Assembly: GCA_964593065.1 (NCBI GenBank)
Contig: CAZQGO010000004.1
Span: 51,832 to 115,831, forward strand
Direction of reading: 5' to 3'
Origin: an uncultured bacterium
GTDB lineage: Bacteria; Oederibacteriota; JAAXVQ01
DNA length: 64,000 nucleotides
Position 1 is the first letter of the stretch; every line of letters begins with the position of its first letter. The notes beneath the pieces are model-generated. The model did no database searches, had not been told where the DNA came from, and was given only the letters and a program-made list of their open reading frames with translations. The position numbers were made by a program, and so were the translations under genes. Positions 238 to 47,110 of the stretch are shown here, piece by piece.

Positions 238-332
238 TTCCGGACCGCCCGGCGCGGACGCCCCGTGCGCCAGCCGCTTTCTCGCGCCGTTGCCGGCCCT
301 GCTGCCGCCGCAAGTTCCCGCCTTAAAAAGCA

Positions 333-361
333 TTGATTCACCCTGAAAATAATGCTATAAA
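333..361 (+). promoter_or_regulatory. σ70-like promoter upstream of PEPCK (TTGATT - 17 nt - TATAAA)
   Basis: Hexamers read directly at 333-338 and 356-361, about 65 nt upstream of the ATG at 428. Confidence 0.4.
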
Positions 362-427
362 GCAGTAATTTTGCCGGCTGGACGGTCAGTCTCCGGCCAG
401 CGACGGCGCTTAGGGGAGGGGAGCAGC

Positions 428-2212
428 ATGACCAGCAAACACCGAAAACTTGCCGAATGGGTCAAGGACATGGCTCGCATGTGCCAACCAGACCATATCG
501 TTTGGATCGACGGTTCGGAAGAGGAAAAGAAGCGCTTGGAAAAGGAGGCCTTTGCGAGCGGCGAGCTCATTCAGTTGAATCAAAATAAATTGCCCGGATG
601 CGTTTACCACCGTACGGCGCAGAATGACGTGGCCCGGACCGAACATCTGACCTTCATCTGCACCAGCAAGAAATCCGACGCCGGCCCGACGAACAATTGG
701 ATGACACCCCGGCAGGGCTATGCCAAGGCCAGGGCCATCTTCAAGAACTCCATGCGCGGCCGCACCATGTACGTCATTCCTTTCTCCATGGGACCGGTTG
801 GCTCGCCCTTCAGTAAAATCGGGGTGGAGTTGACGGACAGCATTTATGTGGTCCTGAACATGCGGATCATGACCCGCGTCGGCGCCGAAGTGTTGCAGCA
901 GCTGGGAAGCAACGGTGCCTTCACGAAATGCCTGCATGGCAAAGCGGACCTGGACATCAACCGCCGCCTGATCCTGCATTTTCCCGAGGACAACACCATC
1001 TGGAGCGTGGGATCGGGCTACGGGGGCAACGTGCTTTTGGGGAAAAAATGCCTCGCGCTTCGCATTGCCAGCACCATGGGCCAGCGGGAGGGCTGGATGG
1101 CGGAGCATATGCTGATCATGGGCGTGGAAAGGCCCAACGGTCAAATTCAGTACCTCGCCGCCGCCTTCCCGAGCGCCTGCGGAAAAACCAACCTGGCCAT
1201 GCTGGTCCCGCCCCAAGGCTTGGCCCGTAAAGGCTATAAAATATGGACCGTGGGCGATGATATCGCCTGGATGCGGATTGATTCGGACGGCAACCTCTGG
1301 GCCATTAATCCCGAGACCGGATTCTTCGGCGTGGCGCCCGGCACCAATTCCAAGACCAATCCCAACGCCGTGAAAACGGTCCAAAAAAACACCATATTTA
1401 CCAACGTACTGTTGAAGCCGGATAAAACCGTATGGTGGGAGGAGGGCGACGGGCCAATCCCCGCGGAAGGCCTCGACTGGCGGGGATATCCCTGGAGGCC
1501 CGGCCAAAAGGACGAAAACGGTAAAATCATCAAGGGCGCCCATCCCAACAGCAGGTTCACGGCACCGATTTCGCAGTGCCCGACCGCCTCCTTCCGGCTC
1601 CAGCATCACCATGGCGTGCCGATTTCGGCCATTATCTTCGGCGGCCGGCGCGCCCGCCTGGCCCCCTTGGTTTACGAGGCCTATAACTGGGAACACGGTG
1701 TCTATATCGGTGCGACCATGGCTTCGGAAAGGACTGCGGCCCAAATGGGCAAAGTCGGGGAAGTGCGCCGGGATCCCATGGCCATGCTGCCCTTTTGCGG
1801 CTATCACATGGGGGATTATTTTAAACATTGGCTGCATATGGGCAAAGCCATGAAGAAGCAGCCGAAAATTTTTCACGTGAACTGGTTCCGGCAGGACCAG
1901 AGCGGGAAGTTTTTATGGCCTGGATACGGCGAAAACCTCAGGATTCTGGAATGGATTTTGGCCAGGTGCGAAAACACGGCCGAAGCCTCGAAAACTCCGC
2001 TGGGATATGTTCCGACCCTTCGCAGTCTCGATATGACGGGTTTGGACCTGTCCAAGCAAAATCTGCAGGAATTGCTGTCAATCGACGAAGAAGCCTGGAA
2101 ACAGGAAATGGATGATCATGAAAGCTTTTTCAAGCTTTTCGGAAACCGTTTGCCCAAGGAACTCAGATCCCAGTTAGCCAAACTCAGGCGCCGATTCAGC
2201 ACCTGGAAATAG
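428..2212 (+). CDS. pckG: Phosphoenolpyruvate carboxykinase (GTP)
   Basis: 594-aa product with conserved GTP-PEPCK blocks (…GSGYGGNVLLGKKC…, …FPSACGKTNLAML…, …NWFR…). Start moved to the in-frame ATG at 428 (MTSKHRKLAEW…) inside the longer ORF 371..2212. Confidence 0.92.
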   Translation: MTSKHRKLAEWVKDMARMCQPDHIVWIDGSEEEKKRLEKEAFASGELIQLNQNKLPGCVYHRTAQNDVARTEHLTFICTSKKSDAGPTNNWMTPRQGYAKARAIFKNSMRGRTMYVIPFSMGPVGSPFSKIGVELTDSIYVVLNMRIMTRVGAEVLQQLGSNGAFTKCLHGKADLDINRRLILHFPEDNTIWSVGSGYGGNVLLGKKCLALRIASTMGQREGWMAEHMLIMGVERPNGQIQYLAAAFPSACGKTNLAMLVPPQGLARKGYKIWTVGDDIAWMRIDSDGNLWAINPETGFFGVAPGTNSKTNPNAVKTVQKNTIFTNVLLKPDKTVWWEEGDGPIPAEGLDWRGYPWRPGQKDENGKIIKGAHPNSRFTAPISQCPTASFRLQHHHGVPISAIIFGGRRARLAPLVYEAYNWEHGVYIGATMASERTAAQMGKVGEVRRDPMAMLPFCGYHMGDYFKHWLHMGKAMKKQPKIFHVNWFRQDQSGKFLWPGYGENLRILEWILARCENTAEASKTPLGYVPTLRSLDMTGLDLSKQNLQELLSIDEEAWKQEMDDHESFFKLFGNRLPKELRSQLAKLRRRFSTWK

Positions 2213-2391
2213 GGGAATGGCGTTTCCAAGACTCGGGTCCCGCGGAACCGGCAAGAGAAGGGCCCTCGCCGCGTCCCTTTTCTTTCTGCAGGGTACATCG
2301 CCGGGTCTGACCGTCACTCTTCCAGCCAGCCGAATTCGGGATTGGACCCGTACGCTTCCTCGTCATTTTCCGGCAGAGAAAGGACCATCCG

Positions 2392-3228
2392 GTGTTTGAA
2401 GTCCTCATGAAAAAAACGCTCGCGCCGGGAGTATGGCGCTATCGTCTGCAGGCGCCCCTGATCGCCGCCAAGCGGCGCGCGGGCCATTTCGTCATTGTCC
2501 GGCCGACCCGGGATGCCGAGCGCATTCCCCTGACGATTGTATCCGCCGATGTCGAGGCCGGGACCGTGGACATTATTTTCCAGGTGGTCGGCGCCACCAC
2601 GCGGACCTTGGCAGAGGTGCGGACGGGTGATGCCCTGGCCGATGTCTTGGGGCCACTGGGTCATCCCACCCCCGTGGAAAATTACGGTACGACGGTGATG
2701 ATCGGCGGCGGGGTCGGCATTGCGCCTCTGCTGCCGATCGCACAGGCGTTTCGGCAGGCAGGGAACCGCGTCGTGACGATTCTGGGCGGCCGTTCCCGTG
2801 ACTTCCTCATCCTGAAGGCGGAACTGTCCGCGGTCAGCGAACGGGTCCTGACCACCACCGACGACGGATCCGACGGCGTCAAGGGCCTGGTCACCGATGC
2901 CCTGAAAACCCTGCTGGAGGCCGGCCAGGTTGATTTTGTGCTGGCCGTAGGCCCGGTCCCCATGATGAAAGCCGTGGCGGACATGACCCGTCCTGGGAGA
3001 ATCAAGACCCTGGTCAGTTTGAATCCCCTGATGCTGGACGGCACGGGCATGTGCGGTGTCTGCCGCTGCCAGGTGGCTGGCCAGACCCGCCTGGCATGCG
3101 TGGAAGGCCCGGAATTCGACGGCCACGAGGTGGATTTCGATAGTTTGCGGCGGCGCTTGGGAATGTTCACGGCCGAGGAAAATCTCCGGAGAGAGAGGGG
3201 AAGCGGTCGCCATGCCACTGAATCTTAG
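2392..3228 (+). CDS. nfnA: NfnA/SudB-type ferredoxin-NADP+ reductase-like subunit (FAD/NAD-binding, [2Fe-2S] C-terminus)
   Basis: GGGVGIAPLLP NAD-binding motif and a C-terminal CGVCRCQ…C cluster. Paired with the GltD-like subunit downstream (17-nt overlap). Start is GTG at 2392 (SD AAAGGA 9 nt upstream); an alternative ATG lies at 2407. Confidence 0.8.
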   Translation: MFEVLMKKTLAPGVWRYRLQAPLIAAKRRAGHFVIVRPTRDAERIPLTIVSADVEAGTVDIIFQVVGATTRTLAEVRTGDALADVLGPLGHPTPVENYGTTVMIGGGVGIAPLLPIAQAFRQAGNRVVTILGGRSRDFLILKAELSAVSERVLTTTDDGSDGVKGLVTDALKTLLEAGQVDFVLAVGPVPMMKAVADMTRPGRIKTLVSLNPLMLDGTGMCGVCRCQVAGQTRLACVEGPEFDGHEVDFDSLRRRLGMFTAEENLRRERGSGRHATES

Positions 3229-4609
3229 CCGCGAGCCCATGCCGGAACAGACCCCGGCAAAACGCCGCAGCAATTTCTCGGAGGTCAATCAGGGATACGG
3301 CGCGGAGCAAGCGCAGCGCGAAGCCGCGCGCTGCCTTTTCTGCAAGCGTCCCACCTGCATCGACGGTTGCCCGGTGCATATCAATATCCCGTATTTCATC
3401 AAGGCTATTCTGGAACGGGAGCCGGACGAAGCCGTCAGGCGGATTCGTTTGGACAATTCCTTGCCCGCCATTTGCGGCCGGGTCTGCCCGCAGGAAACCC
3501 AATGCGAGCAGGCCTGCGTCCTGAATAAGAAAGGCGCGCCCATTGCCATTGGCGCACTCGAGCGGTATGTGGGCGATCACGCCATTCGGGAATGCCTGGC
3601 CACGGAATGCTCTTTCCAGGAAAAGCCTTATAAAATAGCCATTATCGGCAGCGGGCCTTCGGGTTTAACCTGCGCGGGCGAACTGCGAAAGCTGGGTTAT
3701 GCCGTAACGGTTTTTGAAGCCCTGCATGAACTCGGTGGCGTGCTGCGTTACGGCATTCCCGAATTCAGGCTGCCCAAGGATAAAATTCTCACGCCCGAAA
3801 TTGAAACCCTCCGCTCCCTGGGCGTGGAATTTCAAACCAACGCCCTGATTGGACAGGTCGCGACTATCCCGGAATTGCTTGAAAATAAAGGCTATTCCGC
3901 CGTCTATATCGCGACCGGGGCCGGCTCTCCGCAATTCATGGACATCGCCGGGGAGGACCTGAATTTTGTGTATTCCGCAAATGAATTTCTGACCAGGATG
4001 AACCTAATGCAGGCATACCGGGGAGAAGACGCAGCCACGCCCGTGCATGTCGGCCGGCGGGTCGCAGTCGTGGGCGGCGGGAATACGGCTCTGGATGCCG
4101 CGCGTTCCGCCTTGCGAATACACGGGGTGGAACACGTTGTACTGATCTACCGCCGCTCTGAAGCTGAAATGCCGGCGCGCGCCGAAGAAGTCAAGCATGC
4201 CCGGGATGAAGGCATCGATTTCCAGTTTCTAACGGTTCCCGTGGCTTACTTGGGCACTCCCCGAGGAGAAGTTCGATCCGCCCGCTGCCAGCGTATGTCG
4301 CTGGAGGAACCCGATCCTTCGGGGAGGCGAAGGCCTGTGCCCATTCCGGGAAGCGAATTTGAAATTGAAACCGACTCCGTGATTATCGCGATCGGTACGA
4401 ACGCGAATCCCATTATCGCCAAAACCACCCCCGGTTTGAAAACGAATTCCAAGGGTTATATTGTCATAAATGAAAGTTCCGAAACCAGCCTGCAGGGAGT
4501 TTTCGCGGGAGGAGATATTGTCAGCGGTTCCGCCACTGTGATAGAAGCCATGGGCGCCGGCAGGAAAGCGGCTCACATCATCCACCAAAAATTGTCACCT
4601 CAGAAATAA
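3212..4609 (+). CDS. nfnB: NfnB/SudA, glutamate synthase small-subunit-like NAD(P)H oxidoreductase (2×[4Fe-4S] plus FAD/NAD Rossmann folds)
   Basis: CxxCxxxC…CP motifs, IAIIGSGPSG and VAVVGGGNTALD dinucleotide folds. Start moved to the ATG at 3212 (MPLNLSREP…), overlapping the nfnA stop. Confidence 0.85.
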   Translation: MPLNLSREPMPEQTPAKRRSNFSEVNQGYGAEQAQREAARCLFCKRPTCIDGCPVHINIPYFIKAILEREPDEAVRRIRLDNSLPAICGRVCPQETQCEQACVLNKKGAPIAIGALERYVGDHAIRECLATECSFQEKPYKIAIIGSGPSGLTCAGELRKLGYAVTVFEALHELGGVLRYGIPEFRLPKDKILTPEIETLRSLGVEFQTNALIGQVATIPELLENKGYSAVYIATGAGSPQFMDIAGEDLNFVYSANEFLTRMNLMQAYRGEDAATPVHVGRRVAVVGGGNTALDAARSALRIHGVEHVVLIYRRSEAEMPARAEEVKHARDEGIDFQFLTVPVAYLGTPRGEVRSARCQRMSLEEPDPSGRRRPVPIPGSEFEIETDSVIIAIGTNANPIIAKTTPGLKTNSKGYIVINESSETSLQGVFAGGDIVSGSATVIEAMGAGRKAAHIIHQKLSPQK

Positions 4610-39920: not shown

Positions 39921-40751
39921 TTAAGCCGTCGAACCGGAGGTGGGCAGATGAAAACGGTTTTGCAGAAGCCAATGGATCAAACGGCCGACCTCGGCGCGTG
40001 ATTTCAAGTAATAACTGGCCTTGGTCTTGCCGATGCGTTTTTCGTTCCCGACCACCACACCCATGCCTTCCCGTCCCATGAAACCGAAAATTTCTTCATC
40101 GCTTTCATCGGTGCCGACATACACCACCAACGGCCGGCGGCGGGGCGAGGCAAATTTATTCCATAAAAACATCGCGGCGCGGCCTTTGCCCCAGCCGACC
40201 CGGGGCCTCAAGGTCAACTCGTAATTTTTTTCCTGCAGGGTGAACGTATCCATGACCGGTGTCCACAGCTCCTCCATCACCAGCCGGGCGCGTCGCTGGT
40301 CGGCGGGCTTGGCCTGGGCCAGGTTGACCACCAAAGACAAACCGCGGTCTTCGTATTTAACCTCCTGGAAATCCGCCAGGCGTCTTTTCAGGGTCTGCGA
40401 CATCTTGACCAGAGCCTGACTGGTGCGCTTGGCTTCGGCGTGCACGACATTCAGGTCAGGGCCGAAAATTTCCAAACCGTTGTTGGCGATGAAATAGATC
40501 CCCGAAAAACCCACCAATTTCTTCAATACTTCGAGGGCATGGTCGCTGAGAATGATCAGGGTAAGAAAGGAAAATTCCGAAAGCTCCCGCAACTGTTCCC
40601 GCAAGTCGGAAGGCAGAGGCGTCCCGGCGCCCCCGGCTTGGGTTTTGACGATGCTGTCGTAACTCAGAAACAGCAGCAGCCGGGTCCCGGCCTCCAGCCG
40701 CTGTTGGACTCCGGTTAAAATGGGTTTATTCAGCAGCCATTTCATAGCCAA
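39921..40751 (-). CDS. HAD-IIB trehalose-phosphatase-like protein with degenerate catalytic motifs
   Basis: Overall T6PP-like layout (…VYVGTDESDEE…), but motif I reads FLSYDSIV instead of DxDGT and motif IV has T in place of the first D (eyeball alignment). Confidence 0.6.
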   Translation of the reverse strand: MAMKWLLNKPILTGVQQRLEAGTRLLLFLSYDSIVKTQAGGAGTPLPSDLREQLRELSEFSFLTLIILSDHALEVLKKLVGFSGIYFIANNGLEIFGPDLNVVHAEAKRTSQALVKMSQTLKRRLADFQEVKYEDRGLSLVVNLAQAKPADQRRARLVMEELWTPVMDTFTLQEKNYELTLRPRVGWGKGRAAMFLWNKFASPRRRPLVVYVGTDESDEEIFGFMGREGMGVVVGNEKRIGKTKASYYLKSRAEVGRLIHWLLQNRFHLPTSGSTA

Positions 40752-40807: not shown

Positions 40808-41305
40808 TCAACAGGGTTTTCCCAGCACGCGGGCCTTGTCGTACAGCCTGCTTTCCACTTCCGCCAACAATTCGATATCTTCCCGGTTGTAGAGCAGGAG
40901 CTTCCGGAGGGCAGCGGCATCTCCCCGCATTTGCCACTCCGACCAGAGTCGCATGGCTTCGAGTCCGTCCACGCCTTCGGATTGGCGACGCAGGCCCAGC
41001 TGCCGTTCCACGGCTTTCAAGCCGCCCTTGAGGGATAAGCGCCAGCAGAAATACATCAAATCCTGGTGCGCGAAAAGGGTTTTCAGGTCCAGACCCAGCC
41101 GCCGCTTGATCACGGGCAGGTCGAAACGGGCTCCGTTGTAGGTCTTGATCAGCTCCACCTCCCGCAGGGCCTCCAGCAGATTGCGGGCCGTCGCCTCCGG
41201 TCCCACCAGTTGACGGGTTCCCCAACGGGGCCGGAAGAGGCCAATCACGGTGATTTCCCCGGCATAGGAGGTTTCGATGTCCAGGTAGGCCGCGCGGGCT
41301 GGCAT
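40808..41305 (-). CDS. RNase H-like fold 3'-5' exonuclease-like protein (YprB/PF13482-like)
   Basis: YLDIETS…TYNGARFDLPV…H…D pattern. The track start at 41311 is GTG; ATG at 41305. Confidence 0.55.
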   Translation of the reverse strand: MPARAAYLDIETSYAGEITVIGLFRPRWGTRQLVGPEATARNLLEALREVELIKTYNGARFDLPVIKRRLGLDLKTLFAHQDLMYFCWRLSLKGGLKAVERQLGLRRQSEGVDGLEAMRLWSEWQMRGDAAALRKLLLYNREDIELLAEVESRLYDKARVLGKPC

Positions 41306-41314
41306 GGTCACCCT

Positions 41315-42427
41315 TTAGAGCATTCGCCGGTTCAGCCAATGCTGGAAGAAAACATCCTGGATGGCATACGCATCATCGCTTTTTTCCAAGATCTGCATGG
41401 CCAGCAGGCGTCCCAGGGATTTCTGTACCGTGGAAAAGCTTCCCAAATTGTGTTGGAGCAGGTAATCCTTGGAAAATATCTTTTTGCCACCCGCCGAAGC
41501 CACCGCACGCAACAGGTTCTTTTGATGCAGGGATAGATCCCGCCAAAGAAAAGTATAGAACACCGCATGGGTTTCCAGAATGGCCTCCAGCGTGTGGGTC
41601 AGGTTCTTCACCGAAATCACCTTGCTCGTGTGTCCGAGATTCCATAGTTCCCGGCAAATCAACTGGGTAAAGTGCGGATGGCCCCGCGAAAGCCTGAGGA
41701 TTTCATCGATGACCGCTTCCTCGATGCGGTAACCCGTGTTCTCAAACCTGGTTTTAATGAAGGCCTTCAGATAGCGTTCCTCGATCTTGGCCAAGGGAAG
41801 ATGCACGAAGCCGGCGAGGTCTTTTTCGGGATAGGGCTCGAGGCTGATCAGCAGATAACCAACGCGGGTGTGGGCACGGGCGATGATTTTGATACTTTGC
41901 CGCAGTTCATCGGGCAGATTGCCCCCCGCCGTGATTTCATCCAGGCAAACGATGCAAGGCCGCTTTTTGTACTCGGAAGTCAATTGGGAAAGCTCTAAAA
42001 GCGCTTGCGCCACGGCGGTATGATCATGCGCGCGGGTCAGGTCGATGGACAATTCCCCGTTCTTATCGATTTTCAACACCAGCAATTTCTTGATATCCTC
42101 TTTCAGGATGTCCACGAAGCTGTGGAGTTCCTTGGTTTGTCGAAAAGCGGAACGCAGCAGTTCGGCTAAAAAAACCTCCATGAAACGGGGCAAGGAATAA
42201 GCATAATCGAAATCCACGTAGACCGTAATATTCCCCCGACGCTCAAATTCGGCCATCACCCTCCGGGCCAGGGACGACTTCCCGGAATATCGCGGTCCGG
42301 TCAGCAAGACGTTATGACCCACCATGAGCTCCGAGACCAGTAATTCCCTCTCACGGTAGCGGTCGGTAAAAAAATCGTTGCTGACGGCTTCCCCATAACG
42401 GAATGGATTGGGAATCAAGGTCGGCAC
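41315..42427 (-). CDS. AAA-type ATPase with C-terminal DUF234 (Arch_ATPase/COG1672-like)
   Basis: Walker A GPRYSGKSS and Walker B …CIVCLDE…. GTG start at 42427 with TATAAT 14 nt upstream. Confidence 0.7.
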   Translation of the reverse strand: MPTLIPNPFRYGEAVSNDFFTDRYRERELLVSELMVGHNVLLTGPRYSGKSSLARRVMAEFERRGNITVYVDFDYAYSLPRFMEVFLAELLRSAFRQTKELHSFVDILKEDIKKLLVLKIDKNGELSIDLTRAHDHTAVAQALLELSQLTSEYKKRPCIVCLDEITAGGNLPDELRQSIKIIARAHTRVGYLLISLEPYPEKDLAGFVHLPLAKIEERYLKAFIKTRFENTGYRIEEAVIDEILRLSRGHPHFTQLICRELWNLGHTSKVISVKNLTHTLEAILETHAVFYTFLWRDLSLHQKNLLRAVASAGGKKIFSKDYLLQHNLGSFSTVQKSLGRLLAMQILEKSDDAYAIQDVFFQHWLNRRML

Positions 42428-42494
42428 CTCAGGTTCCGCTGATTATACCGGGAGGTATAATATCGCGGACCACATTGTTTGTCAAGACCCGCGT

Positions 42495-42527
42495 AAAAAA
42501 AAGGCTGCCCTCATAGAGGGCAGCCTG
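42495..42527 (-). terminator. Rho-independent terminator of hup (minus strand)
   Basis: Perfect 11-bp stem AGGCTGCCCTC/GAGGGCAGCCT with a 3-nt loop, followed on the minus strand by T8, 27 nt after the hup stop. Confidence 0.75.
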
Positions 42528-42553: not shown

Positions 42554-42844
42554 TTACTTGCTCAAGACTTTCGTTTTCAGATCTTTGCTGACTCGAAAAC
42601 GAATGACGGTCTTGGCTGGCACTTTTACCATCGCGCCGGTTTGCGGATTGCGTGCCATCCTGGCTTTGCGGTTCCGAACAGAGAAAATGCCCAAACCCTG
42701 AAGTTTGTACTTTTTCTCCTTTTTGAGCACTTTAGCGAGCAGGTCATTCTGCGCATCGAGGACGTTGGTGATATCTTTCTTCTTAAGCCCTGTGGCGCTG
42801 ACCAGCTTGTTAAGCATTTCACTCTTCGTTAGCACTTTTTTCAC
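42554..42844 (-). CDS. hup: HU family DNA-binding protein
   Basis: …GFGIFSVRNRKARMARNPQTGAMVKVPAK… conserved arm. Confidence 0.9.
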   Translation of the reverse strand: MKKVLTKSEMLNKLVSATGLKKKDITNVLDAQNDLLAKVLKKEKKYKLQGLGIFSVRNRKARMARNPQTGAMVKVPAKTVIRFRVSKDLKTKVLSK

Positions 42845-43136: not shown

Positions 43137-43334
43137 TTACTTTTTCTCCATGACCCTTCCGCAGCAATAAATAGCCCTTTCGGTCAGGCCCCATTTATCC
43201 ACGCTCAATTCACGGCCGCATTCGTAACAGACCACACGGTCCTTCGCGGTCGCGGGATTTTTCGTGCCTTTCACTGCGGCTTTCCGTGCGGGCTTTTTGG
43301 CTGATTTCTTTCGGGCGACTTTTTTCTTGGTCAT
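43137..43334 (-). CDS. Small basic protein (65 aa): Lys-rich N-terminal tail plus C-terminal CxxC…CC zinc-ribbon
   Basis: MTKKKVARKKSAKKPARKAAVKGTK… then CYECG…YCCG. Has its own consensus promoter. Confidence 0.55.
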   Translation of the reverse strand: MTKKKVARKKSAKKPARKAAVKGTKNPATAKDRVVCYECGRELSVDKWGLTERAIYCCGRVMEKK

Positions 43335-46924: not shown

Positions 46925-47000
46925 TGGAGCCGATGACCAGACTCGAACTGGTGACCCACGGTTTACGAAACCGTTGCTCTACCAACTGAGCTACATCGGC
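46925..47000 (-). tRNA. tRNA-Thr (anticodon CGU)
   Basis: Hand-folded cloverleaf: 7-bp acceptor GCCGATG/CATCGGC, D-arm GCTC…GAGC, anticodon stem ACGGT/ACCGT with loop TTCGTAA, T-arm ACCAG TTCGAGT CTGGT, encoded CCA. Confidence 0.85.
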
Positions 47001-47034
47001 AAGATGAACGGGATTTTAACCCGACAGAACCTCA

Positions 47035-47110
<76 letters not shown>

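Follow-up and report, generated by a model that had tools for sequence, protein, structure and literature searches.

An NTPase-exonuclease gene pair with an unusual AAA+ partner in an uncultured bacterium

Here, we describe a two-gene operon within a 64,000-nucleotide stretch of contig CAZQGO010000004.1 (assembly GCA_964593065.1, positions 51,832 to 115,831) from an uncultured bacterium of the GTDB lineage Oederibacteriota; this whole stretch is referred to as the window, and positions are counted from its first letter. The first gene encodes a divergent ATPase_2/Orc1-Cdc6-like AAA+ protein with a C-terminal winged helix, and the second a putative stand-alone DEDDy 3'-5' exonuclease that resembles MrfB and the exonuclease domains of family-B DNA polymerases (PolB). 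Together they make up a vertically inherited, clade-specific chromosomal operon of an FCPU426/Goldbacteria/Firestonebacteria-like lineage, with a predicted sigma-70 promoter of its own that directly follows the terminator of the preceding gene, hup. Both proteins are predicted to be active. An NTPase is here paired with an exonuclease, and it is the AAA+ type of the former that is unusual; no published account of an ATPase_2/PF13482 pairing was found in the literature searched. We see an even chance that the two proteins are coupled in nucleic-acid maintenance. An earlier reading made from the letters alone (the sequence-only reading) had proposed an anti-phage defence system; the evidence given below does not support that proposal and, whether or not the two proteins work together, the pair does not, on present evidence, qualify as a candidate defence system.

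The two proteins

The product of the second gene matches PF13482 (RNase_H_2) with 113.6 bits (E=1.2e-32, cut-off 22), the match running from residue 8 to residue 156 and taking in positions 1-164 of the 165 in the profile, in agreement with its earlier description as an RNase-H-like putative exonuclease. The DEDD catalytic set is complete, with D11, E13, D64, Y141 and D145 invariant in 39 homologs (Table 1). Because motifs Exo I, Exo II and Exo III, the last in the form Y141-x3-D145, are invariant or nearly so, the protein can be placed in the DEDDy class, and Y141 aligns with the catalytic histidine of MrfB. By sequence, MrfB (YprB) of Bacillus subtilis is the nearest solved structure (profile E=4e-8). 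By fold, the best matches are the exonuclease domains of family-B polymerases, with scores of 14-15.6; the NrnC-like protein 5zo5 scores 14.8, RNase D 13.7, diDNase 13.5 and MrfB 12.4. The protein stops after the catalytic core at 165 amino acids (aa), no TPR domain was detected in a Pfam scan, and the last element of its AlphaFold2 (AF2) model is a single long C-terminal helix. Across phyla, the exonuclease is ∼55% identical and is found in housekeeping contexts.

Among known systems, the pair resembles MrfA-MrfB (YprA-YprB), of mitomycin repair in B. subtilis, in that an NTPase gene is followed by a gene for a DnaQ-superfamily 3'-5' exonuclease, and MrfB, like the window exonuclease, belongs to PF13482/COG3359. 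MrfB structurally resembles DEDDy enzymes, and is itself a DEDDh enzyme with an N-terminal extension and a C-terminal TPR domain (PMC11194089). The window exonuclease, in contrast, is a bare core with tyrosine at the general-base position and with neither the extension nor the TPR domain, and whereas MrfA is a superfamily 2 helicase with DUF1998, the partner in the window is an AAA+ ATPase_2/Orc-like protein without helicase domains. Membership of the MrfAB system was therefore rejected on the partner (no YprA helicase), the general base (Tyr, not His) and the absent TPR. Members of COG3359 usually carry TPR repeats after the exonuclease, and COG2251 fusions provide further combinations of an NTPase with a DEDD exonuclease (PMC3985635). 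The same logic of NTPase plus DEDD exonuclease, as in WRN and DinG, is resembled by the window pair. Other comparisons concern the exonuclease by itself: it is akin to the exonuclease domain of family-B DNA polymerases and to stand-alone PolB-exo-like proteins (PF13482/COG3359, PF10108), but has no polymerase domain, and it lacks the HRDC domain of RNase D.

Turning to the product of the first gene, both Walker motifs named in the sequence-only reading are present, as GPRYSGKS and, in its longer context, CIVCLDE. Its Pfam matches are to AAA+ families alone (AAA_16, AAA_14 and ATPase_2). The identity proposed earlier, a COG1672/Arch_ATPase-like protein, holds in part: AAA_16 is matched above its cut-off (36.8 bits) and the fold is of the ATPase_2 type, but PF01637 (ATPase_2) itself reaches 22.1 bits against a cut-off of 33.2. 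PF01637 is matched at E<=1 by 27 of 30 orthologs, at best with 5e-8, and out-group relatives that score 150-268 bits to the family profile exceed the PF01637 cut-off. The archaeal ATPase_2 proteins PABY2304 (PDB 2QEN) and SSO1545 (PDB 2FNA) have a fold in common with the window ATPase over its full length, albeit at 17-18% identity, and no exonuclease partner was seen beside the ATPase_2 relatives examined. For this "archaeal ATPase" family there are two crystal structures and, to our knowledge, no known function. Orc1/Cdc6 initiators are 12-13% identical to the window ATPase with no match at the sequence level, and nothing in the analysis links it to a replication origin. In an exhaustive profile search the orthologous family comprised one or two clusters at 50% identity, beyond which 263 full-length relatives were recovered at E<1e-30, a number that rises to 2046 representative clusters at E<1e-10.

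Across the 30 orthologs, Walker A follows the pattern [AGS]xxxxG[KR][ST], and in five of them (P0002, P0016, P0020, P0023 and P0027) the Walker lysine is replaced by arginine. Neither helicase nor translocase domains were found in the ATPase. Given these two features, the protein looks more like a nucleotide-dependent switch than a motor. The lysine replacements, set beside the invariant Walker B Asp, suggest that binding or switching of nucleotide matters more than robust hydrolysis.

A DUF234 domain, which the sequence-only reading had assigned to the ATPase, was not detected. It is absent among the 25 most-matched Pfam families when the 30 orthologs are scanned at E<=1, and it was not found in the out-group ATPase relatives tested. 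Furthermore, hhalign against a protein that does combine ATPase_2 with DUF234 (69.6 bits for DUF234; from metagenome contig L175) aligned 41 P-loop columns and none over DUF234. A DUF234 C-terminus was rejected on the ortholog scan and the hhalign result, and the C-terminus is instead a winged helix, with helices at residues 300-312, 320-325 and 331-343 and strands at 347-350 and 353-356 in the AF2 model, and with MarR_2 matching the C-terminus of 14 of the 30 orthologs. The contig just mentioned carries, at 285-4443, three paralogous genes of the "archaeal ATPase" type in a row, encoding an ATPase_2 protein (378 aa), an AAA_14+DUF4143 protein (402 aa) and the ATPase_2+DUF234 protein (455 aa), and in its sister contig (L176) a GIY-YIG gene comes after the first ATPase gene.

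Conservation and origin of the linkage

In the subfamily to which the window pair belongs, the ATPase gene adjoins the exonuclease gene in 11/11 long loci (the window, L001, L003/L004, L006, L007 and L013-L016), with a gap of -25 to +82 nt. The related loci come from metagenome-assembled genomes (MAGs) of FCPU426, Goldbacteria and Firestonebacteria. Four of them (L001, L003, L006 and L007) are independent long contigs whose ATPases are 52-61% identical to that of the window, and in three of these (L001, L006 and L007) the gene order is SecA-rpsP-khpA-rimM-trmD-rplS-rnhB-(yraN)-hup-[ATPase-exonuclease]-otsB-like-(Na/H exchanger)-large TPR protein. In L003 other genes lie upstream of hup and the common block extends from hup onward. 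The gene order of the window agrees with this block: Pfam matches to PF00216 and PF02358 confirm the flanking genes as hup and a HAD phosphatase, as had been read from the letters, and the next gene beyond the otsB-like HAD gene encodes a Na+/H+ exchanger. Location in a variable island was thus not borne out, the pair occupying, in all the long loci, one fixed place in a syntenic housekeeping block in which its proteins are 52-66% identical.

The exonuclease family as a whole is far wider than this clade. When the exonuclease alignment was run against the GTDB species representatives, the family was found in at least 537 species, mostly uncultured, from FCPU426, Goldbacteria, Firestonebacteria, Elusimicrobia, Methylomirabilota, Desulfobacterota, Chloroflexota, Actinomycetota, Patescibacteria and other lineages. 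Using the ATPase profile at E<=1e-3, we found no ATPase within ∼6 kb of the exonuclease in 73 of the best 80 GTDB loci, a sample that consists of the most query-like loci and therefore leans to close relatives. In the other seven, all from the FCPU426/Goldbacteria/Firestonebacteria group, the ATPase gene is always immediately upstream. Co-conservation of the two families consequently holds within the subfamily but largely fails at the level of the family. No exonuclease was found near the distant ATPase_2 relatives examined, and no ATPase near haloarchaeal homologs of the exonuclease (∼40% identity).

A universal partner of the exonuclease was also looked for and rejected, since the clustered neighbours of the 80 GTDB loci are all lineage-specific. 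In 21 Methylomirabilota-like loci (e.g., L010, L011, L019, L023 and L025) an MtaB/MiaB-like radical-SAM methylthiotransferase gene follows the exonuclease gene, often overlapping it, and in 10 loci a divergent ychF faces it, other neighbours being rarer. This conserved setting of genes related to tRNA and the ribosome points tentatively to an RNA-linked function of the family. In locus L008, a 185-aa protein encoded upstream of the exonuclease has no significant Pfam match. One haloarchaeal homolog, a 248-aa protein with ∼42% identity, is encoded on a 427-kb plasmid of Halorussus caseinilyticus (NZ_CP119810.1, 188700-193714), tail-to-tail with a 1405-aa gene of methyltransferase/restriction type that has a TaqI-like specificity domain; no ATPase_2 relative is nearby.

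When 81 exonucleases were placed in a neighbour-joining tree, the eight with a linked ATPase formed a monophyletic group, indicating that the linkage arose once and was inherited vertically. The exonuclease family is an old, widespread and autonomous one that acquired an ATPase neighbour a single time. The linked exonucleases are also set apart by four residues: K54, which occurs in 0/73 of the others; L146, where 72/73 of the others have N; V150, where 71/73 have L; and W124 in place of the usual Y. These residues span ∼40862-41152 of the window, and two of the four lie in the long C-terminal helix just past the YNRED motif, making the clade-specific residues of that helix a possible interface.

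Transcription and joint function

A promoter dedicated to the pair had been proposed on the basis of a TATAAT box 14 nt before a GTG codon. The hexamer is present (42447..42442, minus strand), but it is the downstream arm of a palindrome and not the promoter box. There does appear to be a dedicated promoter, a conserved TTGACA-17-TATTAT further upstream (Table 1). When the sequences upstream of the pair are aligned for 10 related loci, whose ATPases are 40-66% identical, CTTGAC and T(A/T)TTAT are kept in most, and a second element, G(C/T)(A/G)TAA, stands 6-7 nt past the -10 box. No promoter was predicted between the ATPase and exonuclease genes. Upstream of the pair, the perfect terminator of hup noted in the sequence-only reading is in place, with an equivalent terminator 3' of hup in L004. 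On the other side, neither the window nor the two relatives checked have a predicted terminator past the exonuclease gene, so that the insulation of the pair is confined to its upstream side.

The palindrome overlaps both the -10 box and the site where transcription is expected to begin. A search for TTATRC-N4-6-GYRTAA returned it as the single site in the window, against 0.06 expected, and both half-sites, TTAT(A/G)C-N4-6-G(C/T)(A/G)TAA, are conserved in the clade (the window, L001, L003, L006, L007, L013-L016 and L172). We infer that the palindrome is a candidate operator, and its ligand is possibly the winged-helix ATPase itself.

Functional coupling of the two proteins would fit together as follows. 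The ATPase would be a nucleotide-dependent, DNA-binding switch and not a motor; it may direct the exonuclease to ends or lesions in chromosomal DNA, or gate its action there, and it may repress its own promoter through the palindrome over the -10 box. The likely role would then be nucleic-acid maintenance, that is, repair or processing, with a logic analogous to that of MrfA-MrfB, and not mobile anti-phage defence. A more specific version, to which we attach a rather low probability, is an ATP-gated exonuclease: the ATPase would read DNA structure or sequence via its winged helix and recruit or activate the exonuclease via the clade-specific C-terminal helix, in repair or in chromosomally fixed surveillance of foreign DNA. 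Were this version true, the functionally orphan PF01637 family would for the first time have a partner and an activity assigned to it. Coupling in any form would offer a handle on two large orphan families, the ATPase_2 proteins and the small PolB-exo-like exonucleases, and would add an AAA+ switch to the NTPases that partner DEDD exonucleases, which include helicases such as MrfA, WRN and DinG.

Several observations weigh against coupling. The otsB-like and Na/H-exchanger genes, which are unrelated to the pair, are equally syntenic, and conserved adjacency alone is hence weak evidence of partnership. The most divergent ortholog of the ATPase (L172, a metagenome contig, 1543-2949; 40% identity) is likewise preceded by hup, with a promoter and palindrome of similar form, and the 285 nt that remain of the contig downstream contain no exonuclease gene; L172 may be a natural instance of an ATPase that lacks its partner. 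No fusions of the two genes turned up in the hit lists of the homolog searches, and as the related genomes are all MAGs, the share of the clade that carries the pair cannot be quantified. NrnC-like proteins and RNase D are almost as near to the exonuclease by fold as is the PolB exonuclease domain. Finally, autoregulation by the ATPase may occur, but the conserved palindrome is the sole basis for the idea.

Of the alternatives, the one that survives best, though we still consider it doubtful, is that the two genes share a transcript but do not act together: an autonomous exonuclease, doing the housekeeping job that it does in the hundreds of species with no such ATPase, upstream of which an independent ATPase_2-type DNA-binding protein or regulator was inserted once and then kept by descent. 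Most of the points just listed favour it, since the synteny of the whole block, unrelated genes included, means that adjacency may be inertia, and the ATPase of L172 has no adjoining exonuclease and fusions are missing from the hit lists. To these can be added the 73 of the best 80 exonuclease loci with no ATPase and the distant ATPase_2 relatives that stand alone. It is opposed by the tight or overlapping spacing in all 11 long loci, by the single conserved upstream promoter with none predicted between the genes, and by the clade-specific substitutions of the linked exonucleases, which fall at near-invariant sites and are consistent with a new interface. If there is no coupling, the pair is a case of conserved gene order of an ordinary kind, in a lineage that has been little studied.

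It is also conceivable, but quite improbable in our estimation, that the exonuclease degrades RNA or dinucleotides in the manner of NrnC, diDNase or RNase D, finishing RNA or DNA turnover or trimming tRNA 3' ends, and that the ATPase is irrelevant to DNA repair. The DEDDy chemistry is that of NrnC and RNase D, and there are weak sequence matches to the diDNase ancestor (E=4e-4) and to NrnC (E=0.07), although similarity to these dinucleases is marginal at this level. In the same direction points the Methylomirabilota gene, which overlaps that for the MtaB-like tRNA methylthiotransferase and faces ychF. However, it is MrfB, a DNA exonuclease, that is the best sequence match among solved structures, PolB proofreading domains are the best fold matches, and the neighbourhoods vary by lineage.

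Least probable of all, and in our view very improbable, is an anti-phage or nucleic-acid surveillance system in which foreign nucleic acid is sensed by the ATPase, which then licenses its degradation by the exonuclease. The layout of NTPase plus nuclease, with active-site residues intact, is compatible with such a system, and Gabija, Septu and PARIS share its general outline, in which the gene for an ATPase precedes that for a nuclease. There is indirect support in that some of 10 out-group ATPase_2 proteins match the PADLOC candidate families PDC-S01 and PDC-S27 weakly (20-36 bits), and a further point in favour is the haloarchaeal exonuclease homolog that lies beside a large TaqI-like methyltransferase/restriction-type gene. 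Nevertheless, searched against PADLOC-DB v2.0, the window ATPase gave mad8 at 24.4 bits, confined to residues 37-100 and hence to the P-loop, and PDC-S01 at 12.4 bits, and the exonuclease gave no match at E<=0.1; the pair has no model-level match to Gabija, Septu or PARIS, and its context is core and syntenic, not island-like. The place between housekeeping genes is fixed across deep divergence, the linkage arose once and descended vertically, the Walker lysine is not strictly conserved, and the identity of the exonucleases across phyla is unusually high for fast-evolving defence effectors.

Signs of mobility are likewise lacking. The ATPase has no viral relatives in IMG/VR, and those of the exonuclease, at no more than 34% identity, reflect a superfamily that is common in phages. 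In tblastn searches of PLSDB and INPHARED, plasmid and phage matches to the ATPase did not exceed 27.5% identity, and matches to the exonuclease at ∼40% were on haloarchaeal megaplasmids only, with no ATPase nearby. A viral, plasmid or phage origin was rejected on these results. The GC content at third codon positions (GC3) is 0.66 for the ATPase gene and 0.76 for the exonuclease gene, compared to 0.61-0.81 for their neighbours; as GC3 is within the range of the neighbours and GC is likewise unremarkable, a compositional anomaly and horizontal gene transfer were also rejected.

Start codon and features of the locus

The two genes were described in the sequence-only reading as co-directional open reading frames (ORFs) 3-9 nt apart, and so they are, the distance depending on the start of the exonuclease gene. 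The start of the ATPase gene was revised. Nearly all of the 30 orthologs have an M-x-x-NPF N-terminus, either as annotated or from a downstream TTG or GTG start where the ORF is longer, and an AGGAG lies at the matching distance from these starts in homologous loci. Because of these N-termini and the position of the GAGG Shine-Dalgarno sequence, the TTG at 42418 is the most likely start, and the identical database protein is 367 aa long. A leaderless start at the GTG at 42427 was rejected for the same reasons; that codon falls within the GAGG. The transcript is accordingly not "near-leaderless", as had been suggested, the start being TTG 42418 with its GAGG and the promoter lying at 42485..42457.

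Table 1. Coordinates of the genes, protein motifs and regulatory elements in and around the ATPase-exonuclease operon (positions in the window)
Feature	Position	Strand	Details
otsB-like gene, trehalose-phosphatase-family HAD protein	39921..40751		downstream of pair; PF02358, 69.5 bits
Exonuclease gene	40808..41305; 40808..41311	minus	165 aa from ATG 41305; 167 aa from GTG
Exo III, YNRED	40877..40891	minus	Y141, N142, D145 invariant (39 sequences)
Exo II, NGARFD	41120..41137	minus	N59-D64; Y58, G60, F63, D64 invariant, N59 nearly so (39 sequences)
Exo I, D-I-E	41273..41281	minus	D11, E13 invariant (39 sequences)
ATPase gene	41315..42418	minus	367 aa from TTG 42418; ORF extends to GTG 42427 (370 aa)
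C-terminal winged helix	41360..41536	minus	residues ∼298-356; invariant block HQKNL...GGG.KIFS...LGSFSTVQKSL
Walker B, IVCLDE	41936..41953	minus	residues 159-164; D163 invariant, 164 is E/D in 29/30
Walker A, GPRYSGKS	42275..42298	minus	residues 44-51 (370-aa numbering); G49 invariant
Shine-Dalgarno, GAGG	42427..42430	minus	putative, read from sequence; 8 nt before TTG
Palindrome, ATTATACC-N4-GGTATAAT	42442..42461	no strand	perfect 8-bp arms; overlaps -10 box and expected transcription start
Predicted sigma-70-type promoter, TTGACA-17-TATTAT	42457..42485	minus	consensus scan, 11/12 positions matched
hup intrinsic terminator	42502..42526	minus	perfect 11-bp stem AGGCTGCCCTC/GAGGGCAGCCT, 3-nt loop, then T7
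hup	42554..42844		upstream of pair; PF00216, 90.7 bits

Two further features lie upstream of the operon. The low-GC spacer between hup and yraN contains a 65-aa ORF (43137-43334, minus strand) with a Lys-rich N-terminus and a CxxC...CC motif, possibly the gene of a small zinc-ribbon protein; its best Pfam match, at E=0.006, fell below the cut-off and was not significant. Some 4.5 kb upstream of the operon, at 46925-47110 on the minus strand, genes for tRNA-Thr(CGU) and tRNA-Phe(GAA) are arranged in tandem.

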